DNA from: Massalongia carnosa
Taxonomy: Eukaryota
DNA length: 64,000 nucleotides
Direction of reading: 5' to 3'
Assembly (NCBI GenBank): GCA_965645245.1
Contig: OZ287070.1
Span: forward strand, 2,852,001 to 2,916,000
The notes below the pieces were generated by a model. It saw only the letters and a list, made by a program, of their open reading frames with translations, did not search any database and was not told the origin of the DNA. The position numbers were made by a program, and so were the translations under genes. Position 1 is the stretch's first letter. The number at the start of each line of letters is the position of its first letter. Positions 16,189 through 59,105 of the stretch are shown here, one piece after another.

Positions 16189-18362
16189 AAGGGGAGCTGG
16201 TGTCATGGAGTGACTGGGCACCTACCAGTTAGTTCATTGAACCAACCTTAGCTGCTTGAACGAAGCACTAGCCGGCTAGCCGATCCGAAAGGAACTAAGC
16301 TTAATCCGGTTTAGTCAGGGCAAAGGTAAGTGTTCCGGCTGAAGGTAAGTGTTCGGACTGTCAATAGTGTCATAGCGATAGTTTCATGCCAGGGACTTGG
16401 AAAATTGGATCAACGGCTGGATTGGGACTGGTTCCGTTCGCCAGATTCTTATACTCGCCCACGTTGGATTTTCTGTTTCTTTTCTCCTTGTCGAACGTCT
16501 TGTCCACCTAGCTAGACAATCAAGTAATACGTTTGCACCATCTGAATTTCTACCTGACCTCGCACCGTGACACTATGCTCCTGCTTTTTACGGTCGTGTT
16601 CAGCTTCCGGAACAAGTCAATCAATTGAACAACTTAGACAGTTTTGTGGACACCGTTTTTCCTTCGGATCGCATGCGGCAAGCTCATCTGGATGCGGATT
16701 CTTTCGCAAGTCGAGCAATTTTGACTTTGCGAAACGATATCGTCGCGGAGTTAAACCGTGCAGTAATGAATAAATTGCAGGGCTATTCGCACACCTTGAA
16801 CTCAGTTGATCAAATAGAGAACGATACGGCGCAGGAACGAGGAGACTTTCTTCCTCCCGAGTTTTTACAACCCTTGCAAATATCGTCTTTACCACCTTCA
16901 CAATTGCAACTGAAACTTGGAGCCCCAAACATTTTGTTGCGGAATTTGTATCCCAAACTTGGTCTCTGTAACGGCACCCAATTACGTCTTACTCACATTT
17001 CGCGGATCTGTCTAGAGGGAAAGATTTTGGGAGGAGAATTCAACGGTGAAACGCGATTAATTCCCCGGATTCTTCTTAATACCACGAAAGGCGAGTTGCC
17101 CTGGATCATAAGTCGCAAACAATTTCCGATACGACTGTGCTTTGCTATGACTGGTAACAAGTCGCAAGGTCAATCAATGGACACGGTAGGAGTCGATTTG
17201 CGAGCTCCTCCTTTTACTTATGGTCAGTTATATGTTGCATTATCTCGAGTTACGGATTTGTCTCGATTGTGTGTGTTGTTTCCGGAAAGAAATAACGAAA
17301 AACGGATAACTTTGTATATCCGGAAGTAATTCTGCGATCGCAACATGATATGATAACTTATGTTCCTCCGAATCCAGCTGTAAGTTTATGATAATATACG
17401 GTATGATGTCACTTAGAAATTGTACTCAATTGCAAAATAGACAGCAACTTTATTGTGCTATCAAAAATTTACCGTCCAGGTAATCAAGTGTGACAGCTTG
17501 CGAATATTAAATTAAATAGATAATACTGTAGTTTTGACTTTACAACCTTTTATAAATTGTACCGATCGTAAAAACTCGAAATCGATTCCAAAATCTCAGT
17601 TCTGAGATGGCACGGTCTCGTTGTTACTGTACTGTACTTACGTCGCGCAAACGAGGTTGAGTTAAAAACCCGTCGAGATTAGAACCTTCAATCCCACAAT
17701 CGGACAGTCTCATCCCGGGGGAGCCTAGCGCGCCCATCGCGATGAGTCATCCATTCGGGACCCCACCGCAAACCCCCCACCACGATTTCTTTCGTGATGA
17801 TCTTTCCCGCAATGCTTTAGCACGTCCTCGTGGGGATCGCACCCTGTCATGAAATCGAACCAACCCGATCCAGAATCAATCCCGCAGATGAATCTGACTA
17901 AGCTCCCGTTCCTCTATTCAGCTTAGTCAGAATCTCATTAACTAAATCGAGTTTAGACCCCTCTCAACGGCTTCAGGTCAAAGCTGTACCATCACCATCA
18001 AAGCGTACCAACGACAGGAGAACCTCATCTCCACCTTTTATCGTGAAACACCTCGTCAAACCTTCGTGCCGTACGTCTCCTAATAGGGGGAGATGAATAC
18101 TGATCGAATCTTCATGCAAAGGGGTTCGAGACAAATATAAAAGGAAGGACAAGTTAATTAGATAGTTGACTCCTTGTCCGACGTCTTGTATAGCAATCCA
18201 TCACCTAGCTATAGCCTTATTAATAAAGATATCTTGATCACCCAATCCAATTCCTAGGAACATTAGTTCAATCCCCTGCCCAGTCCTTGACATTACGTCG
18301 GACCTACATCGAAAGGTGCCTTTCATAGCACTAGCCCCTGTCCCCCCTCATATTCCACCATC

Positions 18363-31775: not shown

Positions 31776-32731
31776 CTACTGTCATGAAATCGAACCAACC
31801 CGATCCAGAATCAATCCCGCAGATGAATCTGACTAAGCTCCCGTTCCTCTATTCAGCTTAGTCAGAATCTCAATAACTAAATCGAGTTTAGACCCCTCTC
31901 AACGGCTTCAGGTCAAAGCTGTACCATCACCATCAAAGCGTATCAACGACAGGAGAACCTCATCTCCACCTTTTATCGTCAAACACCTCGTCAAACCTTC
32001 GTGCCGTACGTCTCCTAATAGGGGGAGATGAACACTGATCGAATCTTCATGCAAAGGGGTTCGAGACAAATATAAAAGAAAGGACAAGTTAATTAGATAG
32101 TTGACTCCGTGTCCGACGTCTTGTATAGCAATCCATCACCTAGCTATAGCCTTATTAATAAAGACATCTTGATCACCCAATCCAATTCCTAGGAACATTA
32201 GTTCAATCCCCTGCCCAGTCCTTGACACACCCTGATACAAGCGACCGAAATTTTGCATGGCATGGGTGAGATGGTGATAACTTTCTGTTCGTGAAAATCG
32301 AGCCGAAAGCGCATGATTGTCGTTGAAAACGAGCTCGTAGTCCTCGCATTTTCCCTCTCAAGTGAAGTCACGATTTTTCCCGCTAAAGGATCCAGAGGTT
32401 TTTTTTTGAGACTGTCAACTTTTGATCTTGAAGCTGACTTCACATTTGCCTGTAGCGCCCGCAATTTACGAGCACGGACGACTTCACAACGAAAACTGAC
32501 AGTCTCGACGAAAAAACTGACAGTCTCAACGAATTTTTTACGAAACTCGTTTAAAACGAGCCAAAAATTACTCGCAGCAGCAAATTACTCCACCCAAAAC
32601 TTTTCTTACTCGCATACCCCTATTTTCTTACTCCTATAACCCCCATTTTCTTTCGATACTGAATAACCTCATAAGTCAATGCATATATCTGGTCAATCAA
32701 CTGCGACGTTTTCATATTCAGAATTGCAGTA

Positions 32732-38474: not shown

Positions 38475-39600
38475 TTATGATGATGTATTTATACTCCGAT
38501 GTCACTTGCCGTAGGCCGGCCCATACGGGCAAAGCTATCTAAGTTATATTATATGGAAACCCTTTTTAAGGTGTAAAAACTATATCCCTTGATACCTGTC
38601 TGATGCGACACCGGGTCGATGCCGGACGGGAGACGCAGAGCGAGAAGCGTGTGAGGGCTGTGACGCCTTGTGAGATGAGAAGGAAAAGAGAAGTGAGACT
38701 ACTGTTGATTGTACAACAGTGTGGATGCCAGTGTGAATTGAGTCAGTAGAACTGTTTTCATTAGCCAAGCAGTTAATATCTTCAGAGTTTTTGAAGTTTC
38801 GGTCAGCTGTTGATAGTTTTTCGTGCCAGCGGCGCGAAACATCTGTTCTCTGTTGTCAATAAGTCTGCAGAACATAATTACGTGTTCTGGAGTTTATCTA
38901 TGCCAGCCACATGGGCAGGCCTGTGAGGTGACGGCGGGGACCCGTCGCTGGTAGAGGAAGTCAGCAAAACTGATCTTACCGGTGCGAACCTATGTTGTCA
39001 CGGCGCTTTCTGCCTTTTCCAGCAGCGTGTGTATTTTTAGTCTTTTTTTGCTCAAGGGACTGATTGAGCTATGGAGGGTTTGATGACACGATTTTGATAT
39101 ACGTACCACGGGTCGTCCCAGACTTTCAGCTGTCGTATTTTCAGTATCTGCAGTTGCTTTAGACGAGCCGACGCTGCTACAGAGACTTCACGGAGATGTG
39201 CCTAGGAGGGTTCGGACCATGGTAGGTCTGCTTTAGGTGAGGTGGTTAAACGATTTTTGCGTCGATCAGCAGGTTTTTGGCCCAGGTATGCTTCAACTCG
39301 CCCGGGGGGTTATTGAATGCGTTTACGGCCTACCTTGCCTCGGAGTTTGTTTACTATTCTGCTGCATGCGGAAGAAATAATTTTCGATTGACCTCCGGCT
39401 CTGAGACGATGTCTGGCCTGTGCCTGTATCGTGTCGAGATTTGCATCTATGGGTGCTATGTATGTCTCTACTTCAAGAACTGAAGTGGGAGTAGCTTTAA
39501 AGGTGCCAGCTATAGTGCGGAGAAAGTTGTTTTGTATAATGCTAGTTGACGTTTTTGACTTTATGGGAATGTGCCATACGGTTGACCTGTATTTCATGAC
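38475..39600 (-). mobile_element. 5'-truncated non-LTR retrotransposon (Tad1-like LINE), 3' remnant
   Basis: Post-RT motif QNNFLRTIAGTFKATPTSVLEVET, then VRTGKISFADFLY and a CCHC knuckle CPCGWHR*TPEHVIMFC; CAT-repeat-like tail near 38480. Confidence 0.8.
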
Positions 39601-39727
39601 CCGCATTTGAATTATCATTTATTACATTATACATTACGATTGACACGATTTGCTTTAATCATCATGTAAAATGTTGCATTACACGATGCGATAACAGGGT
39701 TGATATCTCGTTTATAACGAGCTCGAT

Positions 39728-41470
39728 TTAATTATCCTGCTCCAGATCTTCATCCCAATGTTGAGGCTTGCCCGTCAATTTGCGATATTGCTTCGCAATA
39801 TCACCCGGTTTAGTCAAAACATATTGCTTACCCGTCTTCTTATAAGAGAAGTTCCTGATAAACTCCTCGTTAGGAAAAAGCTCTTTGGCTATCATTGCAT
39901 CTCGCGCGTTGATGCTTTTTCGTCTTTTACGAATGACTTTTAACAACTCTGTTTGACTCATACGTTCCATATTTCCCGTCTTTTTCGCACGTCGCATATG
40001 TGCATTCCAAAAATCCTCTTTATTTGCGTAATTGCGTCGATTCTGCATGATTGTCATGGAATTACCTCGCACCCTCCCACGTTTCCTGATCGGGTTAGTA
40101 TTTAACAGGCTCTCTTGCCGTGAAACCTGCCCTGCATGTTGAATAGAACCGTGGCCCGTTATTCCGAACTATCCTGAAACCTCGCCCCATGTGTTCAGAC
40201 GTTCTTCCGCTGCCTTCAGTGCACTCCCAAACTCCTATATCCCGAATCCAATCTCAACGTCTCCACTATCCAAGCCTACGACTGGGATTGCCCAGCAGAG
40301 AGAGATTGCTTCGGCATGGAGAAAGGCGGAACAGGTCAAAGCGATCATGGTTAGGAAATTAGAACAGGAACAGAGATGAGGGCAAGTCAAGAATGGGGAG
40401 TTGGAAGCCATGGCTATAAAACCTATGTGGTTTCTCAGGTGTTTGGAGCTCTTCGTCGGACGTCTTGTATACTATCCCTAGACCTAGCTTTCTAAATAGT
40501 AACTCTTGTATATCTCCCTATCTGGACCTTGTCCGTGACAATGATACACTTTATTTCGTTTCAAAAGTATTCTTTAATAAAGTACTCGTCAATAAACATA
40601 CCTTCCAATTGCTATAATGTCAGTTGATAAGAGTCCATGTTTCTGACGTATGACCTTTGTATAACGTTCCCCAATAACGTACAGGTACGCTGACACCTCT
40701 CACATACACTTGCGCGGATGTTTCATCCTCCCAATCGTTAAACAACGCGCTCATATTTTCAGCACATTTGACATGCGGAGGAGCAGGCAAATTATTAATC
40801 GCGAAGGTCACTTGGCCGTGTGGCATGACAATCGTTGTTGTTTTCTTTTTCTTCGTTTGTGATGAGATCGCTGCATCTGCTGTTTGAGAATTTGCTCGTT
40901 TAGAACGAGACAAGGGTGCTAATGTTCCCGATTTGCCAGCTGTTGCTTCCTGCACAATTCTTTGAATTGTTTCTTCTAAGTTATCTGTAGCTTTATCTGA
41001 TGGACTAATGTAATGATGATGATGATAAGTGATCAATTGTTGTTTGCTCGTACTAGATAATAGAGTTTCTATACGAGAAAAGACTGGTCGAGATTCATTT
41101 CTTGAAACGAGCTCTTTGGAAATAAACGGATCACTATCATTGAGAACGAATGTGATAAAAGGTCGAGAAGGAGATAAAGCAGTATTAGAATTTGTCACAG
41201 AATCTGATATAGTGGTTGCATTCAGTCCAGCGGTAGTGGCTAATCTATGTAAGTAATTGTCTTCGATTAAGTCTAGCTCGTTATAACATACCGATCAGAC
41301 GAGCATCTTCCTTTTGTTCAATCATTGTTTTTTCACCCGCAAGATAATATCTAGGAGCAAATGCTACCATTGCTTCTCTTTGCTCAGAAGTACGAAAATC
41401 GTCCTCAGCGCGATCGTTACTAATAAGACATTTTCTAACAGCGTCTTGCACGAGGAGATTTCCTCGACCT
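39728..41470 (-). pseudogene. Spliced gene of unknown function (gene A), divergent from the YR-like gene; interrupted by a solo LTR
   Basis: ORF pieces 40620-41198 and 39728-40046 (DWED..GVSVPVRYWGTLY..W; FW..; FSYKKTGKQYVL..IAKQYR); GTATGT donors near 41291 and 40601; a stop at 40620. Confidence 0.6.
40052..40540 (+). mobile_element. Solo LTR (489 bp)
   Basis: TGTCATGG...CCGTGACA termini; TSD ATGAT at 40047-40051 and 40541-40545; TATAAAA near 40415. Confidence 0.9.
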
Positions 41471-42033
41471 GGAAATTATTTCTTGATTTTAAGAGGCATA
41501 TTTCGATTGAAAAGAGTAAGTTCACGACGAGTTTTAATATAACAAACGTTATCAAATAAATAAGTTGACGAAAAAAATTAACAATCATGTCGTTGGCTTA
41601 AAACAAATGTTTGCTTGCAAGAACAAGCGTTGTTTCTTAGTGTCAAATATTTTCACATTTCTTATGTTACACGTCGAGCTCGTTTCTTCCTTGTTTATTT
41701 ATCACGTTTTGATTATCAATTATTTTTAAATTTCGAGACCCTCAATATGAACTCGTCACAGCAAGAGGATTTTGTGTTGTCTTCTGATTTTCAGTCTATA
41801 ATTGATGCACAACTAGATGAATTAGATCAAGACGAAATAAACGAAGATTTTCAAGAACAAAGCTCAACAACAGCTGCGGAAGAGGATTTAGATTCTGAAA
41901 ACCATATCGATTTACCTTTAGATATGCTACGCAAAGCTTCTGAGGGTGCTCATGCCAAAAGTACACTGGCGGGATACAAAGGGTATTATTCTTTATGAAT
42001 ATGCTCTTTAATAAAGAGCACGTTTAAACTATA

Positions 42034-44597
42034 ATCGTCGGCTCGCTTACCTCCGGGATCCGACCTGAAAAAATGTCGACCGCATTTTAGTCGGGGAAAG
42101 CGGTTGCATCCCGGAAAGCGGTTGCATCCCCCCAAATTCAAATTTCTTCATCTTTTTAATCATTGACCAACAACCACATTGATTAAAAATCAGCCGATAC
42201 CGTACATAGCTTGAAAATCATCGCCGTCATCATCACCGTCGTCAAAATCATTGCCCTTGACTCCCCTGACCCCCTGACCCTCGTGATTCTCCGCTTACTC
42301 CGCATACCCCGCATACCCCGCATTCTAACAATCATTCGCATCTCCTGGTTGAAAAGATGCTTCCGAATCGAATTCTTTCAATGATTCTTCCAAATCGAAA
42401 GATACGAAATCCTCTCGTAGCCATGTTTCTCCTTCTGGAAGATCTGGAAGGATTGAATTATCTCCATGACCAGTGCTATCTACGATAAACGTGACATCTT
42501 CCTCATTGACATTGGCACGCGGATTCTTTCTAATTTCCTTCTTCGCTTCCTCAGCTATCCATACCTCATTCGTGGCCTTCCATAATGCCTCGGGGTCAGG
42601 AATCTTCTCATACATCTTAATTGGAATGGGACCGAGCATTTTCTGCATTTCTTTCAGCTGTTTAACTCGATCTCTTTCTGCTTTTCGAGCAGCCAATCCC
42701 TTGACATGCATTTCGTCTCTTTCTATTCGCCATAGCTTCATGAAGCTATTATTCGCTCGTTTCTCCTCAGCCTCTTGATCCTGTTGTAGTCTGATGGCTA
42801 TAGCCTGCTTTGCATCTTCCGCTGTGATTCCCAATCTTCCGGTTTCTGGTCTCAGACGTTTACGAGACATTCGTCTGTTATTTAACTGACTTCTTCTTGA
42901 TTCTCGATGCATTTCCAGCTCCATGCCATCGATAATTGCATTCGAAACAACTTCATTTGTATTGTCTACAAATGAGTCCCATTCCTCAGCCCGAGCGGGA
43001 TCACTCCATTGCATGGATTTTCTGATTTTCGGTCCCCATTGACTCAAACCATACTCAATGTCAGCTACTTTTGTCGGTTGGATTTGACGAGGTAGGGGTA
43101 GAGGTAATGAGGGCTCATTATTCAGACTGTTTAATGAATCATTGGGATCATTGGGATTGAAATTTTTCAGCTGACGAATGCATGCCTTTGGATCAATCGG
43201 CCACATTCCCGACTTTTCAAATGCATGCCGAATCGTAGAAGTCTTGAATGTATGATTTCTGATTTTAGTCAAGTCCTGTATAAATTGAGACAGAGAATAC
43301 TCGACAAATGACGACGCAACGACTTCCTCAATAGCTTTGCAATGCCAATGCTTATAAGGCTGAAATACGCCCACATCCAATGGTTGCATGCAATGAGTTA
43401 AATGCGGTATAAAGGGAAAGGGTCGAATGCGATTCTCATTGGCCAAAAGTGAAAATTCAGGGGTTGTATGACTGCCATGATTATCCATCAGCAATAATTG
43501 CCATTCCGCATCAGGTCCTGCATTTGTATGTTTGATAAGATGCTTCAAATATTCAATTGCTATCTTATCAGATGTAAAACCACTGTTCGAGGGCACGACA
43601 TACGTGCCCTCGGGCACACCTTCTAAAAACCATGTGGCCATGATGTCATGACCCTGTACGATGATCATTAGAGGGGGGGGATAGTCGCCGGCAGCATTGA
43701 TAGTCTCAATAACTGTCGCAGATATGCGATTTTCCGGGCTGACGGCGTAGAATTGTTTGATTTCCTCAGGAACAATAATTTCCTGACCCCTCATGCATCC
43801 AACCCGAAAACCAGCTTCATCAAAGTTCAAAATGTTCCGACTTTTTCGAATTTTCAACTCTTTTAACACCTCTCTATACCTTTCAAACCATTCTATCACA
43901 TCTGATTCTTGGGCAGCTTCATAACGAATCATTGCTAGTGGTTTTGTCTTTATTTTATGAAGTTTGTTACATTTCCACCAGCTCCGAAACCATCTTCTTG
44001 ACGGGCCTACCTCGAGGGGGTTATGGGCCTTTTTCAGACTTACAATAGCCTTGAAAACCATCTGTTGTGTAGGAATAATTCCATGCATCAATAAGGACTT
44101 AATAAAGCCAGTAATTGACCTTGCCTCATGCTCCCTCAGTATCTGATTTTGTCCTCCATTTTTCCTCCCTTCTGGTCGACGAATGGAAGACGTCAAAGTT
44201 TTGACGTTGATATTGTAGATTCTAGCTGCAGTCGTTTTACTTTCTTTGGGATGATTTGTCAGAAATTCCTTCGCCTTTTCCAATCTTTCCATGGGGTTGA
44301 GAGTGGAGACAAGGGAGGCGTCGTTATCCATGATACGAAAGGGGAGATTGGTTTGGGGGATTGATTCGAGAGGAAAGAATTTGAATTGATGATCAGTTGG
44401 GTCGGAGAAATAATTTTCAAGCTAAGTACGGTATCAGCTGATTTTTAATCAATGTGGTTGTTGGTCAATAATCAAAAAGGTGAAGAAATTTGAATTTGGG
44501 GGGATGCAACCGCTTTCCGGGATGCAACCGCTTTCCCCGACTAAAATGCGGTCGACATTTTTTCAAGTCGGATCCCGGAGGTAAGCGAGCCGACGAT
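42034..44597 (-). mobile_element. Fot1/pogo-like DNA transposon (pogo-2) inside intron 1 of the YR-like gene
   Basis: About 185-bp imperfect TIRs (42034-42218 and 44413-44597); TA TSD at 42032-42033 and 44598-44599. Confidence 0.95.
42325..44331 (-). CDS. pogo/Fot1 transposase (DD35D), intact
   Basis: 668 aa; NFDEAGF, LMDNHGSH, QPLDVG. Confidence 0.94.
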   Translation of the reverse strand: MDNDASLVSTLNPMERLEKAKEFLTNHPKESKTTAARIYNINVKTLTSSIRRPEGRKNGGQNQILREHEARSITGFIKSLLMHGIIPTQQMVFKAIVSLKKAHNPLEVGPSRRWFRSWWKCNKLHKIKTKPLAMIRYEAAQESDVIEWFERYREVLKELKIRKSRNILNFDEAGFRVGCMRGQEIIVPEEIKQFYAVSPENRISATVIETINAAGDYPPPLMIIVQGHDIMATWFLEGVPEGTYVVPSNSGFTSDKIAIEYLKHLIKHTNAGPDAEWQLLLMDNHGSHTTPEFSLLANENRIRPFPFIPHLTHCMQPLDVGVFQPYKHWHCKAIEEVVASSFVEYSLSQFIQDLTKIRNHTFKTSTIRHAFEKSGMWPIDPKACIRQLKNFNPNDPNDSLNSLNNEPSLPLPLPRQIQPTKVADIEYGLSQWGPKIRKSMQWSDPARAEEWDSFVDNTNEVVSNAIIDGMELEMHRESRRSQLNNRRMSRKRLRPETGRLGITAEDAKQAIAIRLQQDQEAEEKRANNSFMKLWRIERDEMHVKGLAARKAERDRVKQLKEMQKMLGPIPIKMYEKIPDPEALWKATNEVWIAEEAKKEIRKNPRANVNEEDVTFIVDSTGHGDNSILPDLPEGETWLREDFVSFDLEESLKEFDSEASFQPGDANDC

Positions 44598-44915
44598 TAG
44601 AGCATCTGTTAATAAATGAATATAGTCAATGGAAGATGTTTTCATCCTGGGTCAAGGATAATTTTTCTAAACATGAGATATCTGTGTTATATCCAGACAA
44701 AAATACTCCATATTTGATAGCTTATTGGACTTATCAAAATTGTAATACTCCTGAATCTGTTGAGTAAATGCATTATTCTTATATATTAATGAGCTCGTTT
44801 TTAATGAACCTGTTAGTAATAAAAACTCAATACTTGCTATTCCTCAAGATAAGTCATGGTCACATGCATATAAAATGCGCTCCGTATGCAATTAGAGGTA
44901 TGCACACAGCATAGA

Positions 44916-45309
44916 TGTCAAGGAATGGGCAGGGGATTGAACTAATGTTCCTAGGAATTGGATTGGGTGATCAAGATGTCTTTATTAATAAGGCTATAGC
45001 TAGGTGATGGATTGCTATACAAGACGTCGGACAAGGAGTCAACTATCTAATTAACTTGTCCTTCCTTTTATATTTGTCTCGAACCCCTTTGCATGAAGAT
45101 TCGATCAGTATTCATCTCCCCCTATTAGGAGACGTACGGCACGAAGGTTTGACGAGGTGTTTCACGATAAAAGGTGGAGATGAGGTTCTCCTGTCGTTGG
45201 TACGCTTTGATGGTGATGGTACAGCTTTGACCTGAAGCCGTTGAGAGGGGTCTAAACTCGATTTAGTTAATGAGATTCAGACTAAGCTGAATAGAGGAAC
45301 GGGAGCTTA
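44916..45309 (-). mobile_element. Truncated Gypsy-2-family LTR (inverted copy; first ~50 bp missing)
   Basis: Near-identical reverse complement of about 17899-18292; it stops at the AcademH-like TIR. Confidence 0.93.
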
Positions 45310-45924
45310 GTTGCCTCAGTACCTCAGACGTGCGTGGCTCTATGAGCCGGCTAAGCCCCTCCGGGTTAGCCTATTTTCGCTAAGCCCCTTCGGGTTAGCG
45401 TCGCTAATTCCCTTCGGGTTAGCGGCCCTTTAGCTGACTACGCATGCTACGGGCGGCACGTCTGAGCGCAAAACTCTGTATTTTTGTCAGATCCGGCTTA
45501 TTTTGGTGCGCGCTCATACAAATTTTTGGCTTAACCTCAAAAATCATCAAGAATCAAGTTGACGGCGGAATCAACAACGCGCAACGACATTTCATAAATT
45601 ATGTAATAATAGAAATGATGCTTTGATATACATTCTATCGATTAATCAATATTTTAATTACATATCGATGCAAAATTGAGTCGCAATATCGATCTCGCGA
45701 CGAGGACTCGACTTTGACTCGAAATTTCGACACCACCACAGCAGACTCAACGGGTCACTAGCTCCAGTTTTTCATTGTCGGCGCTTCTGATCATTAATCT
45801 GATCCTCCGAGCGTTGTTTTCGAAAGCCTAAAATCGTTGAATGTGATGAACTTGCTTGATGTGCGTTTTGCGGGCTAAGAATCCAACTCGCGAATCGTCG
45901 AATATCGCTCGCGAACACATCGAA

Positions 45925-48100
45925 ATGGACGATCCTATAGCGTCGATAACTCGCGAGCAGGTGACGACCGTGATTTTAAGTAAATTCGGCTTTTATCCAA
46001 AGAATGAGCAAGTTGACGCTATCATGACTTTAGCACAAGATCAAAAGGATCTGATTTTTATCGCCAAGACTGGATTTGGAAAGAGTATTGTCTTTCAAGC
46101 TATGCCATTAATGTTCTCTTGTCTTAAGATCGCTTTAATTATCATGCCTCTCAAGACCTTAGAAGCTCAACAGTGCAAGAAATTGAGCGTTATCGAGGGA
46201 TGCAAGCCTTTCGTGTTGGACGGTGATAGTAATAATTCTTCTAATTTAAAGTTAATTCGTGAAAACAATTATACGCATGGTGTGTATTCAAATTATGATT
46301 GAGATAAATATAAAAACTTACTCGTTAATATGAATAGTTTTTACTAGCCCAGAGATAGCGACGTCAAAGCTGTTTAATCAGGAGGTTCTGAGGCATCCAA
46401 GTTTCTTCTTGAATTTATGTCTTTTAGCTCTTGATGAGATGCATCTTGTATCCGAATGGCGAGATTTCCGGCCCGAATACTTCAATCTCGGTGTGCTTCG
46501 TACACGATTACCAGATGGTATTCCTTTTCTGGGTGCGTCTGCAACGCTGGATCCAAGAACCCTAGAGAGCGTTAAAGATCGCTGTGGCTTTGATAACGAA
46601 AGTACTGTTATTCAAACAGCGCTTGATCGTCCAGAGATATACATACAGACAAGCAGTCTACAGCGGCCTATGAACAGCATGATCGATCTTCAACATCTTT
46701 TACCAACACGGGCTGAGAGTCCTTTTGATATTCCGAAAACGATTATCTTCATGGATTCAATTTCATCTATCAAAAAGGCGTGTGCGCTAATGAAAGTATG
46801 GATGAATCAATTGTCCTATCCAATTGAGGCTGCTAGTTGGGTCGCGCCTTTCTTTTCCGACATGGCCACCCAAGACAAAGAAAGGATTGCGGCTCGCTTC
46901 GAAATGCCCTCGAATCAATGTAAATTTCCTCGAATCCTGATCGCAACGGATGCATACGGGCTTGGTATTGATAATCCAGACGTTATGAGAGTTACGCAAT
47001 GGCTGCTACCCTCGTCAATGGCGAAGCTATACCAACGTTTAGGTCGTGCTTTGCGTTGCAGTCGAGGACAGGCGCATTTTACTCTTTTGCATCCTTCTTG
47101 GTGCATGGGTCCAAGAAGCGGATCAAAAATGGACGAACAGGACGGATATGACGCGGGAATCGAGATTGAATCCAAGGCCAGTAAACGCCGCATCAATCAA
47201 AAGGATGCTGATCGGCGACGAGATATGCCACCGGGTCTTTGGGAGATAATCAATGTGCCTTCAGATGGTTGCGTTCGAGGTATTGGCTTGAATTTCTTCA
47301 ATGATAAAGTGTATCCAACGTCGGCCTATGTTAAGCCGCAACCTTGCTGTTCAATTTGCGATCCAAGTTTTCAGACATCAACAGCCGCCAATGAGATGTT
47401 AAATAGAACGGCCGAGCGTGACTCGTCTAGGCGGCCTTGGTTCACCCTTAAACTTCGAGAATGGAGGGAGGCCAAGGCGCAGGAAAAGTTCCCAAATTCA
47501 CATATGCGATACTTCCCATCATTGATAATGCCCGATGAGGTACTGAATTCTTTGACCACTTGGGCGGATCAGATTGTGGACGAGCCCACCATGCGGCGAT
47601 GGATTGGTAACACATGGACTGGTATTAGGCCCTACGGCGCCGAGCTTTTAGAAATTTTAAAGCGGGGTCAAGCAATGAGATTAGACGAGGGAGACATGTT
47701 CGAGGAATGGAAACGACACAACGACATAAAGAGAAAACGATTACCCAGCCTAACATGCAACTCCGCCAGTATTGAATTTGAGGAACGGAGGAAAAACTGG
47801 ATGATCAAACAAGGATATATGTCGAGAAAGGTTTTTAAAAAGCGAAATGCGGTCAAGAAGAAAGTCTCGAAGGAAAGCGAGAGCACGGAGCCATCGGGCG
47901 AGAATCCTGCGCCTAATCACAATATCTCCGATGCGGCGCTCGTTGTTGACAATGTTGATGCTCTTAAATCATCGATGAAGGCATCAAAGACCAAAAAAGC
48001 GCCTCGAGATCCTATGGAAGCGTTGTCGCTGAATGTACCCATGGCCCTTCCTCCGACACGATCTAGACAAGAAAGAAAGTGCCCCGTCCGCTACCTCTGA
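45925..48100 (+). CDS. RecQ-like SF2 helicase, about 705 aa (intron 46280-46337)
   Basis: AKTGFGKS, IMPLKTL, FTSPE (created by splicing), DEMH, SAT, ATDAYGLGID, QRLGRALR, a Cys cluster (CVR..CCSIC) and an HRDC-like LREWR segment. Confidence 0.9.
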
Positions 48101-48159
48101 CTCTGTAAAGCCGCGCGGCGCGGATTTACATGACTAGGCTATCTCGTGGTATCGATGAT

Positions 48160-50838
48160 TTAATCAAAAAACATACCGCCGGATATCTCGAGACGGGCCA
48201 TTGAAATGACAGGGCTGTCGGGGACCTGCTTTGTTTCATTGACAAAATCGGGCTCGGCTTCATACTTACCCTCAAGGTCGTCTGTTGAAATTTCTTTTGA
48301 AATTTCTTCGGAAAGATACTGCTGATTGTATTTTAATACATTTTCTCCAAGTTTCTTCAATCCCTCAACATAAAGATTAGCTGTTGGATTAGTTGAAAAT
48401 CGATCATAGCTTCTTTTACAGAGTGATTTATGCGCTAGTGCCGTAGCCATGCCCCACACATCCTCTGCGGCCGATTTTGCTGGATGCCTTGAAGAGTTGA
48501 CTCTTCCAAAGTAAAACTCAACGATTTCTTTGAGCTTCATAAGATATGGACCGTTGAGTGCCCAGTTCTCGAGCAAGGTGTCACTATACTTTGAAAAATA
48601 AGATCGCTCGTGCTGGAACGTCTTGAGGTTATTGTTTAGTATCTCTAAAAGCCGATCAGTCTCAAAACTCGATTCTTCGTCACCGCGTAAATTGACAAGA
48701 CTATTCATTAAAATACTTTCCTGTAGCCTTATGGTCGCTGCGGAAGAATCAATCGCATGAAGGGTGTATAGAAGAGCTTGCGCATATTTCGGGGTGCCAG
48801 CTACGCTTGCCTGAAAGATCACCGTTGCGTGGCGCAATGCGTGACGAAGTAGTCCAATATCCGCATATTTGATTGCGTATCGAAGTGTTAGATACGATTC
48901 AACGTGATCACAGAAGTTCTGATGATTCTGAAATTGTTGATCAAGCGTTGGAGGAAGCATATCTATTGACGTTGAGGGTAATTCCGCGTGAAGTTTGCGA
49001 GATATCCTGCCCAACATATTCATCCAGGTGCCATCCTGCCCGCAAGTCTGCGCTGTGAGCCACGAAATAGTTGCTTCGATTCGCTGCGGAGCATATCCAT
49101 CCTTTCGTAAAAACCTAATCCACGTCCCAACGATTCTAGCTTGATAGCTCTGAATGATCAGATCCTCTAAGGCCTGGAAATCGTTCGGCTGCACGACACG
49201 AGCGCGGCCCCACCGATCGGCGGCATATTGAAGAGTCGAAGGATCAACCGGCTGGGCCTCTCCCCAATGTATTTTATGAATAAGCTGCAGCATGTTAAAG
49301 CGAAGATGCCATAACCCTAATCCCGGTAAAATCCAGTCGAACCGATCGAAAGATTGCTCCGATATCCCACGACGTAATTCCTTGACAGATTGCATTCTCG
49401 ACCATGTCTTGAGGTCACCATAGATAAGCCGAATGACGCTCGCAAACGTCGAGTCATCCTCCTTGAACTTGAACTGTCGCACAAATATATCCTCCAATAT
49501 TTGAATATTATTAGATGTTGTGCTCTCATCCTTCATGACTGGTTTGATAGGAATGTAATTGGTCTTGTATTTTTTCATCTTATTCAGCACGGGCATTGCA
49601 GTCGACCAAGGAAGTTGAACGTCGCCGATCTCTGGGCCATATAGCGCTCGAATCGCTGACTCTAGATGATGAAGACGAATCTAGGTACGCGGTGCATTAG
49701 CGATTGAGCGCGGTATATACACCTCGTCCTGTATTGAACTCACCTGCATCTCGAGATCACCAGTCTCCAGCTTTCGCGCAATTCTTTCAGCTGATAAAAG
49801 ATGCGTGGCGGGGCGCCACATATCCTGCCTCAAAGCGCCGGCATCGAATCCTTGCCCCTGGAAAATTAGAGCGGTAGTGATTGATCTGACGTCTCTATTA
49901 TCCCCCGTGCGCTCTCCTCGTTTACCTTCTGCGAAGTCAAAGTTATCGTATGTCAAGATCATGTTTGAGCCTTGTCCTAGCATCTGAACCTTTCGTTCGG
50001 CCTCCTTAATCAAGGACAACATGCGCCGCTGCAGGGTAGTATATGACATCGTCAGGTCAAAATGACAGAGTGTATCTAGAACTCGCCGCCTCGCCCCACC
50101 TTGATAAATATAAAGGCCTAAGACGGACTGAATATTGGTCGCCTTATTTGGTCGCAATTTGTGACAAAGCATTGCCAATATAACGGTGTGCCGGCCGCTG
50201 GGAGAATCCAACGTCACATCGAGAGCTTCCTGCGGGCGAGCCTCGCGACAAACACTATCAATTAGCTCAAGCCATCGTGGCGCCAACTGCTTGGCGGCAG
50301 ATGCAGCAAGTTTAATAGCCTCCAAGGTCCCAAACTCGACTGTCGCAGAGGGCGGCTGGAAAGGGCCAAAGGCTGCGTGATCTGCCAAAGCTTTGATTTC
50401 TTCACGAAGCACATCCGCGGCCCAAACCCATCCTCTCTCGCGAAGGATAGTGGATATTCTACCAGGCCCAATGAGGCTTGAAAAGTCTTCTTGCCGCACA
50501 ATATCGACATAGACAAAATCGAAGAGCTGGCCTTGCGCCTTTCGCATACTATGACGGGCTCGATTCTTACAAAGTGTTGATAAAAAATCTTTTACCGACC
50601 AATTTAGAGAGCTCAGAAATTTAAGCACCTCAACCAGCTTGTCGTAATCTGATATGCGCCGGCGGTGGCGTTTCGCGCCTCCATTTTTTTCAGGTAAGGC
50701 AGGAGGGGAGGAGGAAGAGGGTGAGCTATCATTACTGCCTGACGGCGATGGGTGGGGCCGCTTGAGCGCACCGGCGGGAGTCAAGGGACTTGTCCGTAGG
50801 TCGGTAAGTGGCGAGGAGGGGCCCCCGACAAGAGCCAT
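48160..50838 (-). CDS. Academ-type DDE transposase, about 871 aa (intron 49681-49743)
   Basis: A GTGAGT..GCTAAT..TAG intron joins the two ORFs in frame. Motifs TYDNFDF, IYGDLKT, LGLWHLRFN and ETDRLLE are candidate D, D, H and E. Confidence 0.8.
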
Positions 50839-51309
50839 GGCTTTCGTCAGATAGCTTCAATCTAGATAAATCATACAATACCATTGATTGGCCGTCGTTA
50901 TTCATATCATCATGATCTTTGTAACTCAATGTAATCGCGCCACATGAAAATAATCAGTTCATCAACCTCAAAATTGAGCGAATGCGAACAATTTATCACT
51001 TAATCGACTTTCACATCGCTTTTCTTAGCCTGACAGTAGTTATAACACATGCTTATCGAGTCATCCATCTTGAGAGGTGCGTTTTTGGTATAAAATACAG
51101 TCTCTTGTAAACTAATACGACCCTAATCATTGTATTAAATCCATAAAAGGAATGGTTGCACTGCTAAAATTTTTATTACGCGGATCTGGCCGTAATTTTG
51201 AGTTTTGCGCTCAGACGTGCTATCGCACTGATGTTAGTCAGCAGCGACGCTAACCCGGAGGGGCTTAGCCGGCTCATTGAGCCACGCACGTCTGAGGTAC
51301 TGAGGCAAC

Positions 51310-51735
51310 CGGGTGACTGATAATCCGGATGCTTAGTCATGATAAGGCGGATAGCAATACTAAGCCATCAGCAATCAGCCTGTTAGGCAGCAACTGAAGC
51401 TATTCAGAAGCCTCGATCTCATGGGAGGCCTGGGACGCCTAGGAGACCTCAGCTGAAGGCAACAAGGCTATCTGCTAGACCTCAGCTGAAGGCAACAAGG
51501 TTATCTGCTAGACCTCAGCTGAAGGCAGCAAGGCTATCTCCTAGACCTCAGCTAAAGGCAACAAGGCAGACAGGTAACCAGACAAGTAGTTAGTAAATAG
51601 GACCCCAAGGGGTATATAGAAAGCTCGATTCCCATCTTCAGGGAATCAGCTTTTAGCTTTAGCACCTACCAATCTATTAGCAGTCACACTGAGCATTATA
51701 ACCCATAAGGACTAGTGTCTACTGTCCCTCTTATA
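51310..51735 (+). mobile_element. Truncated LTR-like fragment of a different family
   Basis: Internal tandem repeats and TATATA near 51613; it ends where the YR-like coding sequence resumes; no 5' TG end. Confidence 0.55.
51444..51567 (+). repeat. 33-bp tandem repeat, about 3.8 copies
   Basis: Unit AGACCTCAGCTGAAGGCAACAAGGCTATCTGCT. Confidence 0.92.
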
Positions 51736-52004
51736 GTCTCAAAGTTATGATACTTTGATAATCGTTCGTTATTTAATGAATTGGAACGACGTTCCTACAA
51801 GACGACGAGATTATTTCATGAATCTGGAAGCATAGATCGGAGTAAAATGTTCTTATTGTGGTCGAGCTTGCGATTGTGCATAAAGAACTCCTTAAATACT
51901 AGTTCATGAGCTCGAATAATGAACACCAGGAGGATGATTTCAATCTGTTCTATAATGATAAAAAGTTAAGTGCTCATTTAGATAAACTCTTTTCACCCGA
52001 AATC

Positions 52005-52674
52005 CTACTCCTCATCATCATCCTCCCCCCCTCCCTCCTCTTCACCCTCCTCCTCACTCCTCTCCTCCTCCTCACGTTCCTCCTCTCTCATCTCCTTATC
52101 CTCACTGAAAGGATCGGACAACACTTTCTCAAAAAGTGGATCATCACTTTCGCCCAGTTTAGTCAAAAGAGCGACAGCAGCATCCACCCTTTCGCCTCTA
52201 CTAGCAATCTAAATTCGATTAAAACGAGTTCGTTTATAATGAGCATGTTCGGATGATTTACTTTTCTATAAGACTATTTACCCAGTATGGCCTCAAAAAG
52301 ACGAACACAATGCTCTTGTCGACCTCTAAGAGTCAACTGCTCTTGCGCAACTTTCTATAAACATTAAATATTAGGTCGAGCTCATATATAACGAGTATAT
52401 ATTAACGATTTTACTTTGGTTTTGGCATTTGAAATGATTTGCATCTCGAACATTCATTGTTCGAGCATAGACGCACCATGAGCACATCCGCAAGGCAAGA
52501 GATCGACCTTGTCTAAGCCCAACGGAATATTCTCGCCCTTAGGCATCTCCTGCATTCGTTTTAAACGAGCTCATCCGTAACAACAATCATCATTTATAAC
52601 GAGCTCATACCTTTTGTGACCGATAATATCTATGACATCGGGCATAGCCCGGATTCTGTCTCCAGAATTTCGCC
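52005..52674 (-). pseudogene. 3' part of a multi-intron gene of unknown function with an acidic tail (gene C)
   Basis: Three short GT-AG introns (about 52553-52611, 52357-52414, 52210-52262); exons include KFWRQNPGYARCHRYY and LLPCGCAH; Glu/Asp tail; in-frame stops; cut by the Gypsy-4 LTR. Confidence 0.55.
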
Positions 52675-53067
52675 TGTTATGATCTACCTAGAGACTAGTC
52701 ATAGGGACACTAGAAACGAATACAATCAAGATGAAGAAGAAAAGATCAATTGAAAGACAAATCTCGCTCCTATATAGTCCAGCGGCCCCTAGCCCTCGAC
52801 CGACTCGTGGAAGGATCTAGAAGGTTCGAGTATTGACCAGCTATGGAAACCGTTAATGCCGCGATGAGTCTAGCGCGCACACGCGATCCCGTGATGTGAG
52901 GGATAAAACGAGTTCAATTTCAATAGCCTAGTTCTACACCAAAATCTTCAGACGAAGTCTAAAAGCTTTACTCGGGCGGAGTTCTATATAACCCATGAAA
53001 AGTTGGTTCCTCGGCACATTACCTAATCGATGCTAGTCTGATGTCAGGTGACCTCAGGACCCTGACA

Positions 53068-56000
53068 CTACCCCTCCTCTGAGACGGCGGCTCCGGACGT
53101 CGATGGTTGACTGTTATTCATGAATAGGACATCCTTTGGGGCGTTGGGTTTTCCTTTATTGTCTGTATGAAATTTTCTGATTTCTTCTTTGGCGCGAATG
53201 AAATCAGTCCATGGCTGCCAAGGTGGGTTTGCGTTCCAGTCATCCCATGAGCCGATATAGGTTGCTTTATACTGAGTGCCGTATTTCTTAGTTTCACGGC
53301 AGTCGACGATTTCGAGGACTTCATATTCTTCATGAGGACTGGATTCGGCGTCTTCTTGAATCAGTATCGGGGGACCCGGTTCAATAAGTTGACCGGGGAA
53401 TGGGTTCGTAGGAGTCAGATGAAGTTTCCATGGATGAAATATGGGTGTGAGCCCCACTCTTTTCAAGTTTTCGGGAATTTCCAATTCATAGGCCTTGTTA
53501 TCTATGTTTCGGATGATTTTCCATGGCCCCGCGTTTTTGGAACTCAGGGAGCGACTCTGCTTGTCGACGGAGAAATCTTTGGTGTTGACATATACCATGT
53601 CTCCTATCTTGTAGTCTGGATGTGGGGCCCGCGACTCATTGGCATATCTCATCTGATCATCCTGTGCCCAGGTTAGGTGCTCGATAAGCCATTTCGTCAT
53701 GGCTTCTTGTCGGGCGGTTATTTTGTCTGCCGACATCAGTTCCGCGCGTCCGGTGACATTTGAGTCAAAAGGCTGAGGCGGCTCCGAGCCACTACGAGGG
53801 TGATAACCGTGATCAGCGAAGAAGGGGGACATTCCGGTTGAAGCGTTCGTATGATTATTGACTGCAAATTCGGCATCTGGTAAGTAGTCCACCCAGTCGT
53901 CTTGAGCATGTCTGACGTATGCTCTCAGGTAGTTCTTCATAACCTTATTCGCATTTTCGGTTTGACCATCTGTTTCTGGATGATGCGCGGAGGACGGTTT
54001 CGATTTGACTCCTAATCGCTGACAAATTCGCTTCCACAGATGGGCTGTCAATTGCGTCCCGCGATCGTGGACGATGGAGTTTGGCAAGCCGTATGTTGAA
54101 AAGACCCGACGTTTGAGGACTTCTAGTACGTCCTTCGTGCCTATATCCACCATAGGTTCGTACAACCTACGTTTGGTCAATCTGTCCACGATAACCAAGA
54201 TATTTTCGTACGTCCGGCCCCGTCTGTGACATTTGGGCAGTTTGACTACAAAGTCCAGAGATAAGTCTGTCCATTTTCTTTGAGGTATGGGTAGTGGGGC
54301 TAATAGTCCCTGTTTCTGATCGTTGTACACCTTGGACCTTCGGCATGTAGAGCAGTTAGTAGCGTATCTTCGACAATCATCCTTCATGGACATCCAGAAA
54401 TAGTTCTCCAGCATTTTGGCATACATGCCTCGATACCCGGGGTGTCCTTGCATCGGGGGATTATGATGATCCGATAAAAGACGCAGCTTCAGCTTGTCGA
54501 AATTCGCAATGAAGAGGCGTGTTTTGTAGTATAGTCTTTCGTGACGGACTTCCAAGTCACCCATCGCCAGTCTCAGCCCGTTGCTTAGAATTTTATCGGG
54601 CAATTTCTTCAGATTTTCCAACTTAGCCTTCATGACTTCCTGAATCATTGCGTCTTCTTGATATGCCTCCGCTAAAAGATTTTCTAATAATTCATCAGGC
54701 TTTTCTGCATCCGAATCATCATTCGAATTGATTGTGAACTCCTCTACCGTCAAGTCCTCTACTTCCTCATCCCTGATTTGATCGGATGAGTCAGTAGTAA
54801 TGTTGTCTTCAACCCGTTCTCGATTGGCCATGGATCTGGTTGTCACGTACAGCTTCAGGTCCTGTTTCACTTCATCGTCCAGCTGATTTTCTTTTAGCAG
54901 CACCTGATATTGATATCTGGTGCGATCATCCTCCGCGTCCATCGGCAGATCTTGCTCTCTTCTGGTGAGGGCGTCCGGTTTGCCCCCTTGCTTGCCTGGT
55001 CTATACATAATGCGAAAATTATATTCCGCCAGCATCTCAGCCCAACGCACTTGACGGCGATTTAGTTGTTTCAAAGTCATGAAGGTCTCCAGATTCTTAT
55101 GATCTGAGTAGACCATTGTTGATTGCTCCACTCCCGCTAGCTCCGGTCTCCACATGACGAAACTTTCTACGATGGCTAGGAGTTCTTTATCGTAGATCTC
55201 ATAATTGCATTCGGCGGGGCTCATCTTCTTCGAGAAACAAGCCACGGGTTTCAGAACGCCTTCATGCATCTGAGAGAGTATCCCCGATACTACGAAGTCA
55301 GATGCGTCTGTCTCCACCCAGGTCTCTAGCCTTGGGTCGTAATGAGCAAGAATCGGCGCAGAGGTAAAAGAAATCTTCATGTCTTCGAAAGCTTGCTGAC
55401 ATTCAGTGGTCCACACGAAGTCTTGATACTTGGTGCGTCTCTTTCCGCCTTTCGTGACATATTGCTCTCCGCGGGTTAGCTCGGTCAGACACTTCACCTT
55501 TTCGGAGAATCGCTCAATGAAGCGACGATAGAAGTTAGCGAATCCAAGAAAGGACTGCACCTCTTTTACTGACGCGGGCGTCTTCCATTCTAGTCTGGCC
55601 GTCACCTTTTCTGGGTCCATTCTAACGCCATTCACCCCCACGAACATTCCGAGGTATTTGACTTCGGAGACAGAGAATTCACACTTGTCTATGTCCAGTT
55701 GAAGTCCTCTTTCTTTCAGACGACGAAGTACCTTCAGTACCTGCTCGATGTGCTCCGTTTCTGTTTCACTGAACACCAGTACGTCGTCCAGATAGGCGGT
55801 GACGAAATAATCTAAGTATTCTCGCAGGGAGTTATTGATATAGCTCTGAAATGTTGATGGAGCGTTGCATAGTCCGAAGGGCATCACAAGATATTCAAAT
55901 TGACCGTATCGAGTATTGAACGCCGTGAGCCACTCTTGTCCCTCTTTAATCCTCATCCTATTGAATGCATGAATGACGTCCAATTTAGTAAACCACTTTG

Positions 56001-58725: not shown

Positions 58726-59105
58726 GTTTTCTGATTAGCCTAATGATTCTGATTGTAGGTCTGAAGATTGTGTGAGGGATAAAACGAGTTCAATTTCAAT
58801 AGCCTAGTTCTACACCAAAATCTTCAGACGAAGTCTAAAAGCTTTACTCGGGCGGAGTTCTATATAACCCCTGAAAAGTCGGTTCCTCGGCACATTACCT
58901 AATCGATGCTAGTCTGATGTCAGGTGACCTCAGGACCCTGACACGTGACTTCGGCTTGTGGCTTGTTCCGCTCCGGTCTACCGAAGTAGTGCCGAGTAGA
59001 ACCGTGACACTACCCCACGCTTTAGATCGCGAGTCACTTGACCGCGATAATGTCCGCGTTATCTCCGCTTAATCTGAGACTAAGTGACCGATGCGATTAG
59101 TGCGA

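Follow-up and report, generated by a model that had tools for sequence, protein, structure and literature searches.

A hexamer-based motif recurs in the introns and flanks of a broken three-gene element in Massalongia carnosa DNA

What keeps one short DNA word recurring, in both orientations, through the introns and spacers of a single damaged locus? The question is raised by a 64,000-nucleotide (nt) stretch of DNA assigned to Massalongia carnosa (GenBank assembly GCA_965645245.1, contig OZ287070.1, positions 2,852,001 to 2,916,000 of the forward strand), referred to here as the window, in which a broken element with three predicted genes lies between 39598 and 52674. A first-pass annotation had pointed to a 9-bp word, AACGAGCTC/GAGCTCGTT, dispersed through what it called a rearranged, tyrosine recombinase (YR)-like locus, and had proposed that the word ties both sides of the rearrangement to one ancestral element and could be a binding site for an element-encoded protein. 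We find that the motif is real, specific to the element within the window, built from half-sites, and placed in non-coding DNA. As to its role, the interpretation that we favor, tentatively and at somewhat less than an even chance, is that selection in the element's lineage maintains the motif as a cis-element, which a multimeric protein recognizes in double-stranded DNA.

Results

The motif is enriched in the element and has a half-site architecture

The exact copies listed in the first-pass annotation are all present, six in the element (39716, 41106, 41676, 44791, 52564, and 52598) and two outside it (18808 and 32328), as are the variants at 41274/41275, 51908, 52223, and 52377/52378 and the palindrome CTCGTTTATAACGAG at 39707. 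Eight exact copies in the window compare with a mean of 0.44 in 100 dinucleotide shuffles, none of which reached eight. With the nested insertions removed, the element comprises 3,184 bp of 37.8% G+C, in which six copies compare with a mean of 0.03 and a maximum of two in 2,000 first-order Markov shuffles, close to the value of about 0.02 estimated earlier. The motif is the commonest 9-mer of the element, and any 9-mer reached six or more copies in 12 of the 2,000 shuffles.

The word is part of a larger pattern. The hexamer AACGAG/CTCGTT is the element's commonest, at 13 copies (4.1 per kb); the remaining 60.8 kb of the window contain 45 (0.74 per kb). The 9-mer is the junction between the CTCGTT and AACGAG hexamers of successive units in an array with a 15-bp period. 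Same-strand cores lie 15 nt apart seven times, while every other spacing occurs at most twice. The fullest form of the array, CTCGTT-N3-AACGAG-CTCGTT, is best preserved at 39707 to 39730, where the three hexamers of CTCGTT-TAT-AACGAG-CTCGAT include the exact copy at 39716 to 39724. The inverted pair CTCGTT-N3-AACGAG occurs three times in the window (39707, 40895, and, outside the element, 32546), compared with about 0.004 expected by an estimate from its 12-base specification; the everted abutting pair AACGAG|CTCGTT also occurs. All eight GAGCTC sites in the element are flanked by CG on at least one side, and the consensus, oriented on the stronger side, is ATGAGCTCGTTWTAAA.

To score sites, we used a position weight matrix (PWM) built from ten of them and counted a locus as strong at a score of 13.8 or more. 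By this measure the composite site at 39707 scores 21.6 on the minus strand and 19.4 on the plus strand. Ten of the 11 strong loci in the element fall in the approximately 35% of it that is non-coding (binomial estimate, about 2e-4). The presence of a short motif, in both orientations, in the element's non-coding DNA is thus confirmed by the 9-mer, hexamer, PWM, and spacing counts.

We considered the PAC motif (Dot6/Tod6) as an identity for the word and rejected it, since its core GATGAG is present in one of the eight GAGCTC sites of the element (52567) and the sites are intronic. In the relevant passages of PMC3612091, the GATGAG core lies upstream of ribosome-biogenesis genes in Saccharomyces relatives and Candida, with GATAAG in Sordariomycetes.

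The two sides of the locus belong to one collinear element

Window sequence was found in seven public sequencing runs from four studies, one of them labelled as a lichen metagenome; among the nine runs listed, none is recorded as RNA. Contigs of four runs were aligned to 39000 to 53100. A 4,810-nt contig (record 23 of run X5) is collinear with three parts of the locus, in one orientation throughout: contig positions 287 to 1779 match 40541 to 42028, 1784 to 2102 match 44598 to 44912, and 3021 to 3959 match 51736 to 52674. Because the blocks keep the same order and orientation, both sides of the locus are parts of one collinear element, and the earlier claim of a single ancestral element is supported independently of the motif. 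What had been described as a rearrangement is a nested insertion plus a deletion and not an inversion; the locus is indeed broken, and its collinear blocks are split by insertions and a deletion. Between the last two blocks, 919 nt of the contig are absent from the window, as are a further 851 nt beyond the last block, at 52674, where the window copy ends.

Four events split the window copy. First, a 2.57-kb DDE_1 transposon lies at 42029 to 44597 (minus strand), and its empty site (joint 42028 to 44598) is present in X1, X4, and X5. Second, a 501-bp high-copy repeat, also foreign to the element, occupies 40049 to 40549; runs X1, X2, and X4 skip it (joint 40048 to 40550, with seven other letters between), and its depth is very high. 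Third, a long terminal repeat (LTR) copy at 44915 to 45311, itself split by a 6-kb element with terminal inverted repeats (TIRs), cuts the element at about 44913; other copies of this LTR lie at 17844 to 18292 and 31779 to 32227. Fourth, about 919 bp were lost by deletion. The surviving sequence has also decayed: gene 1 carries an in-frame stop at 40620 to 40622, where other copies read a sense codon (C at 40622; K-G), and gene 3 has one stop and one frame defect.

The left end of the element lies within 39598 to 39712, and on its right the element is cut short at 52674. In runs X1, X2, and X4, contigs pass from 39621 directly to 39712, and the 90 bp omitted in this way end within the 39707 palindrome. 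The 39707 motif may coincide exactly with the element's left end or with an indel allele.

The element carries three predicted genes

Introns were called from GT..AG ends and frame continuity, and gene 1 intron 2 is the one whose position homologues confirm. None of the 15 contig joints listed, of 56 in all, matches a predicted intron.

Gene 1, on the minus strand, is the best supported of the three. It consists of an upstream exon with an uncertain 5' limit (41292 to 41475), intron 1 (41240 to 41291, 52 nt), exon 2 (40602 to 41239), intron 2 (40601 to 40043, with the 501-bp repeat inside it and a 5' part at 40550 to 40601 that starts with GTATGT), and the last exon, exon 3 (39728 to 40042). 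Its frame is continuous once the introns at 41240 to 41291 and 40601 to 40043 are removed, and in tblastn the C terminus of homologue P0020 (residues 442 to 502) aligns to 39943 to 39770 (E 5e-4). An exhaustive HMMER search of 1.84 billion representative proteins with the 224-residue open reading frame (ORF) as query returned a family of 28 proteins. None of these homologues has a Pfam family, and the sole named one is a hypothetical protein of Cryoendolithus antarcticus. Searches for longer homologous proteins with the gene 1 ORF and with gene 2 exon 2 found none for either query.

Most homologue gene calls end a few residues past a conserved W-K/R-V; that is, they run into an intron at one conserved position. 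In tblastn, the homologues align through the window's stop codon to about 40599, and 28 of 30 alignments end between 40560 and 40674. A phase-0 intron directly after the conserved W-K/R is kept across the family, and because homologues down to about 25% identity share this position, reading W-K/R-V into the intron, gene 1 intron 2 is, on this comparison of protein sequences, an old intron.

Exon 2 encodes the conserved domain of this uncharacterized fungal family, about 85 residues predicted confidently (mean predicted local distance difference test score, pLDDT, 83) as two beta-hairpins and three helices. Structure comparison of the domain model gave no clear PDB match (best Z 3.5; Foldseek E at least 1.4). 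The whole-protein model (pLDDT 61) matched coiled coils through its long helix only, and two further leads were set aside: the best PDB profile match, a SATB1 fragment at E 0.24, was not credible, and the ESM Atlas returned unnamed ascomycete clusters at 0.90, with GTPase clusters below 0.9 treated as noise. From these models we do not claim gene 1 as a DNA binder or as a novel fold, and we name no binder.

Genes 2 and 3 are predicted from ORFs, GT..AG ends, and frame alone. Gene 2, on the plus strand, has exon 1 at 41747 to 41982, which matches no family; intron 1 at 41983 to 42028, resuming at 44598 to 44625 after the DDE_1 transposon; exon 2 at 44626 to 44763, placed by frame; intron 2 (G2-i2) at 44764 to 44816 (53 nt); and exon 3 at 44817 to 44872, with an uncertain 3' limit. 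Gene 3, on the minus strand, has an exon at 52611 to 52674, where the window copy ends, introns I1 (52550 to 52610, 61 nt), I2 (52355 to 52414, 60 nt), and I3 (52209 to 52261, 53 nt), and a last exon at 52005 to 52208 that encodes an acidic tail. The exon pieces of genes 1 to 3 matched no tyrosine-recombinase/integrase, DUF3435, or GCR1_C Pfam family at E ≤ 0.01 or at E ≤ 10; the part of gene 2 able to hold a catalytic domain and the 5' part of gene 3 are absent from the window. GCR1_C likewise had no match at E ≤ 10 in the gene 1 pieces or in full-length P0020 and P0021, in searches whose HMMER filters drop weak matches. The label "YR-like", which the first-pass annotation gave to gene 2, is therefore unconfirmed, the candidate catalytic part being missing from the window and no recombinase family being found at E ≤ 10.

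Motif copies occupy the predicted introns, the flanks, and two exon spots

To address how the motif is distributed over these genes, we performed a leave-one-out PWM test on eight intron pieces with 1,000 shuffles each. Six pieces contain a site matched by at most 3 of 1,000 shuffles, the gene 1 intron 2 piece is weak (p 0.03), and the 3' piece of gene 2 intron 1 is not significant (p 0.31). Six of the seven predicted introns thus carry a clear copy and the remaining one a weak copy. In gene 3, both exact copies at 52564 and 52598 lie in sense within I1 (p 0.001), as the earlier observation of two copies in one intron had it; one abuts the 5' splice site, and the other is 14 nt from the 3' splice site. 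I2 and I3 each hold two units 15 nt apart, ACTCGTTATATA / TGAGCTCGACCTAAT in I2 (PWM 15.8, p 0.003) and GCTCATTATAA / ACGAACTCGTTTTAAT in I3 (PWM 19.4, p 0.001). Gene 2 intron 2 has a sense exact copy (44791 to 44799) immediately before TTTAAT, with 17 nt left to the 3' splice site (p 0.001), and the 5' part of gene 2 intron 1 (G2-i1) has the variant GAGCACGTTTAAAC at 42016 (PWM 13.9, p 0.001). In gene 1 the intron sites are antisense or two-way (40585 and 41271): intron 1, whose removal restores the frame, holds a two-way variant (TAGCTCGTTATAAC on the plus strand, AACGAGCTAGACTTAATC on the minus strand; PWM 17.8 and 14.1; p 0.001), and the weak site of intron 2 is an antisense variant, plus-strand CTCGTCAATAAA at 40585 (score 7.0).

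The other copies lie outside introns. The composite site at 39707 to 39730 starts 3 nt past the gene 1 stop codon (39728 to 39730, minus strand), and an exact copy in the divergent intergenic region between genes 1 and 2 (41676 to 41684, plus strand; PWM 18.6) stands as a promoter site 63 nt before the gene 2 ATG at 41747. About 90 nt past the gene 3 stop, the region 3' of that gene (51736 to 52004) contains the variant ATGAGCTCGAATAATG at 51908 to 51916 (plus strand; PWM 14.1) and a weaker GAGCTTGCG at about 51863. The two exon spots are both in gene 1 exon 2: the palindrome CTCGTT-TAG-AACGAG at 40895 to 40909 and the exact copy at 41106 to 41114, in codons K-E-L-V. When two-way sites are omitted, a rightward orientation is shared by all copies from 40585 to 51908 but the exon copy at 41106; the four between 52223 and 52598 point left. 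This pattern fits the binding sites of transposon arms; it is equally what the sense strands of genes 2 and 3 would give.

The introns also resemble one another. In a comparison in which some coordinates are off by a few bases, 12 of the 21 pairs of element introns are alike at z ≥ 3 relative to shuffles, with a reach of about 28 nt (for example, I3 versus G2-i1, z 7.5). By contrast, none of the 14 pairs formed with two control introns reaches z 3 (z ≤ 2.4). This likeness raises a somewhat unlikely alternative, that the motif is a legacy of duplication without present function, either because the introns are sisters (introner-like) or because the non-coding DNA grew by duplication of a 14- to 15-nt unit. 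Tandem two-unit modules at 39707, I2, I3, and G2-i1 agree with it, and fungal introner-like elements and internally symmetrical sister introns are on record in the sections cited here of PMC4457414 and PMC8469720. Against it, the similarity is confined to 14 to 28 nt, comprising the module and the splice signals, the intron lengths are ordinary (47 to 81 nt) and one intron is structured, and the module is present outside introns too. Moreover, the old intron 2 of gene 1 carries the module, apparently also in a relative at 55 to 58% identity, a distance over which neutral sequence should have been randomized.

The two controls are the only introns of the window outside the element, and both belong to its helicase/DUF6589 neighbor. 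They bear on the improbable case that the word, or its CTCGTT..AAT half, is general to this fungus's short introns, for instance as an extended branch-site context. A faint resemblance is seen in both: the helicase intron contains CTCGTTAATATGAATAG (PWM p 0.06) and the DUF6589 intron contains ATTGAGCGCGGTATATAC (PWM 12.4, shuffle p 0.005), although in real sequence about 1.6% of stretches of this size should score at least 12 (estimated from about 10 loci in 60.8 kb), which makes the control evidence weak. Neither control has the GAGCTCG core, neither resembles the element introns, and in the element the motif is found in the promoter, 3' flank, and exons as well.

Peptide evidence suggests that the intron 2 module is old

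The closest relatives of gene 1, P0001 and P0029 (55 to 58% identity in tblastn), read through the intron after W-K as V-R-F-N-R-A-H-M-N-R-T-H-H. Within this stretch, R-A-H is what CGAGCTCAT would encode, and N-R-A-H-M / N-R-T-H-H is a five-residue tandem matching the 15-nt period. RAH occurs twice in P0029 compared with 0.033 expected (Poisson P 5e-4), the second time at the exon palindrome. Intact copies at 90% identity have N-E-L-V at the exon site, a reading that would allow the full 12-mer palindrome. Taken back from peptides to codons, these matches suggest an old intron that has retained the module despite a divergence large enough to be expected to scramble neutral intron sequence. Metagenome scans for the DNA of relatives gave 115 pattern matches to an alignment of six close gene 1 homologues and 131 to P0005, none of which was confirmed.

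Discussion

Possible readings: a DNA-binding site, an RNA signal, or an intron legacy

The reading that we favor would have the element keep its hexamer half-sites as a partly palindromic array with a 15-bp period, placed wherever coding allows: in the introns of all three genes, the gene 1 3' flank, the divergent promoter, and the two exon spots. Its reader would be a protein with sequence specificity, acting as a dimer or multimer and supplied either by the element, as one of its three products, or by the host. We infer upkeep by selection, reading at the DNA level, and a protein reader, and we rank this interpretation first because of the half-site architecture, a type common in multimer binding sites, the use of both orientations, the non-transcript contexts, the coding-permitted placement, and the conservation deduced from relatives.

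A number of observations weigh against a protein-bound DNA array. Introns hold about four times as many sites per nucleotide as the remaining non-coding DNA (about 8 in about 430 nt versus about 3 in about 700 nt), 10 of the 12 sites with an orientation are in sense, and in five introns (I1, I2, I3, G2-i2, and G2-i1) a sense motif lies directly 5' of TTAAT/CTAAT, 14 to 20 nt from the 3' splice site. Were the motif purely a DNA site, none of these three observations would be predicted; the bias toward introns and the sense strand is also compatible with an RNA-level or intron-family origin, and density, sense, and branch-point proximity would be explained better if the motif were a signal in RNA or for splicing, or the mark of an intron family or of duplicated units. 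Most sites are half-palindromic only, their left half being mostly NATGAG rather than AACGAG. Comparison of the gene 1 conserved domain with known DNA-binding folds and families found none, and the surviving sequence of the element contains no recombinase domain. The conservation argument, too, works back from peptides to codons and not from DNA; homologues below about 35% identity have no motif-compatible peptides, and one close copy reads T-R-T where the window reads T-S-T at the weak intron 2 variant, so that this site is not strictly kept.

The same facts bring in an explanation at the RNA level, which we regard as unlikely: a signal in the element's pre-mRNA, acting as a splicing enhancer or silencer near the branch point or in regulated intron retention, and read as single-stranded RNA or as a small hairpin. 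All seven predicted introns have a copy or variant (six significant, one weak), and both the sense bias and the position before TTAAT/CTAAT would follow from such a signal. The two copies in I1 pair as a hairpin of −16.1 kcal/mol (z −2.8), as stable as which was 1 of 200 shuffles, and we read the common variant AAUGAG as still able to pair with CUCGUU through a G-U wobble. However, the other four of the five introns folded and the gene 1 3' flank are no more structured than shuffles (z −1.4 to +0.8), so hairpins fail as a general explanation, I1 alone being structured. The gene 1 intron sites, and those deduced in its relative, are antisense, and the promoter and post-stop copies would have no splicing role. 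The word is not known to be recognized by any spliceosomal RNA or factor, and extended pairing with U2 or U6 was rejected, no complementarity to either being known. An intronic C/D small nucleolar RNA was rejected also: I1 contains ATGATGA, but at 61 nt it is too short, and a D box was not seen.

A further reading, which we consider quite doubtful, is a private "address code": every intron and flank would keep hexamers in an array of 15-bp period, with one of the element's three uncharacterized proteins as its reader. With such a code the element could be tagged at the DNA level, whether for synapsis by a recombinase or so that an excised circle can be tethered; alternatively, splicing of its introns could be blocked until the factor permits it. 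If this were true, introns would serve as parking space for the cis-sites of a mobile element. More broadly, if selection keeps the array, a mobile-element lineage would be storing cis-recognition sites in its own spliceosomal introns, a layout that is not described in the portions used here of the Crypton, introner, and sister-intron accounts (PMC3212892, PMC4457414, PMC8469720, and PMC12130899). It would also provide a testable DNA or RNA target for the uncharacterized gene 1 protein family. Should the motif be common in host introns instead, it would point to the spread of an intron family through a lichen-associated fungus or to an unusual branch-site context there. The present basis for all of this is one decayed copy, the coverage and differences of a few close copies, and the deduction from read-through peptides.

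The transposon neighborhood and motif-like sites outside the element

Pfam searches of the long ORFs portray the window as a nest of fungal-type transposons, with copia and Ty3 polyproteins, pogo-type DDE_1 and Tc1-type DDE_3 transposases, a SWIM-finger Mutator-like element (MULE) remnant, and a Pif1-type (Helitron-like) fragment; only transposon genes, and no ordinary host gene, were found among these ORFs. The pogo/Fot1-type DDE_1 transposon at 42029 to 44597 has an intact 698-codon ORF and TIRs of about 193 bp that are 96% identical, and it landed within a 75- to 80-nt intron (gene 2 intron 1), beside a motif copy. The approximately 6-kb element at 45310 to 51309, inserted in the LTR, has 61-bp inverted ends that are 98% identical and encodes, in convergent orientation, a RecQ-like DEAD/Helicase_C protein and a DUF6589 protein, each with one intron. 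It is high-copy in the aligned runs, and an internally deleted form exists (joint 46030 to 48794 in X1 and X2). Between the LTR remnant and the right-hand piece of the motif-bearing element, 51444 to 51566 is a tandem array of an approximately 33-nt unit (self-match at offset 66, 95% identical).

Outside the element, the exact copy at 18808 lies inside the gag ORF of an LTR retrotransposon and was taken as chance. Non-coding DNA at 32320 to 32562 holds the best outside site, TACGAGCTCGTTTTCAAC (PWM 19.4), and, 220 bp away, a perfect palindrome, CTCGTTTAAAACGAG; the two sites, at 32322 and 32546, adjoin the SWIM-finger MULE remnant, and a short-word BLAST found no further similarity to the element there. 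The next best class of outside hit is GAACTCGTTTTATCC (PWM 16.8), present in each of the 174-bp LTRs of a Ty3-type element (52895 to 53068 and 58771 to 58944; 98.9% identical), and is probably chance.

Comparison with known systems

Four groups of known systems invite comparison. Like introner-like elements and sister introns, including stwintrons (PMC4457414, PMC8469720, and PMC12130899, as far as the cited sections go), the element has short introns that share sequence beyond the splice signals and show internal symmetry. In the same sections, however, the members of introner and sister families resemble one another along the entire intron, are counted in tens to hundreds across unrelated host genes, exceed regular introns in length, and form stable folds, whereas here a 14- to 28-nt module recurs in 47- to 81-nt introns, at least one of them old, within one 4- to 5-kb unit, and also in flanks, promoter, and exons. 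We found neither whole-intron similarity nor extra length in the element introns, and one of five folded introns was more stable than shuffles.

The size of about 4 to 5 kb, the several introns, the low copy number, and the absence of visible long terminal repeats are shared with CryptonF elements as PMC3212892 partly sets them out. CryptonF, in that part of the account, is one protein with YR and GCR1_C domains and is described with 4- to 6-bp terminal direct repeats, not with dispersed internal motifs; the element has three separate genes, and neither domain was matched in its surviving sequence. The spacing T..Y..W..F..W at the gene 2 N terminus weakly recalls, in our reading, the N-domains of recombinases.

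Recombinases of the lambda Int type use multiple short arm-type or accessory sites, apart from the crossover core, which the recombinase or its helpers bind in forming the synaptic complex. Such sites cluster within about 250 bp of the crossover, whereas those of the element span kilobases and no recombinase was found in the surviving sequence. In DNA transposons, short subterminal repeats are bound by the element's own transposase, as with the AAACGG hexamers of Ac/Ds, the 12-bp TnpA motif of En/Spm, and the multiple end sites of Mu and Tn7. As in those systems, a word of 6 to 14 bp occurs here in many copies and both orientations in the element's non-coding DNA, often as inverted pairs, and sites in the left two-thirds mostly point right while four right-hand sites point left, in the manner of transposon ends. 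Unlike subterminal repeats, which occupy zones of 100 to 250 bp, the sites recur every 150 to 400 bp or so along the whole unit, mainly in introns, and the element has undefined ends and no DDE transposase of its own. By this analogy, the array would in its workings most resemble the subterminal motifs of transposons and the accessory sites of recombinases.

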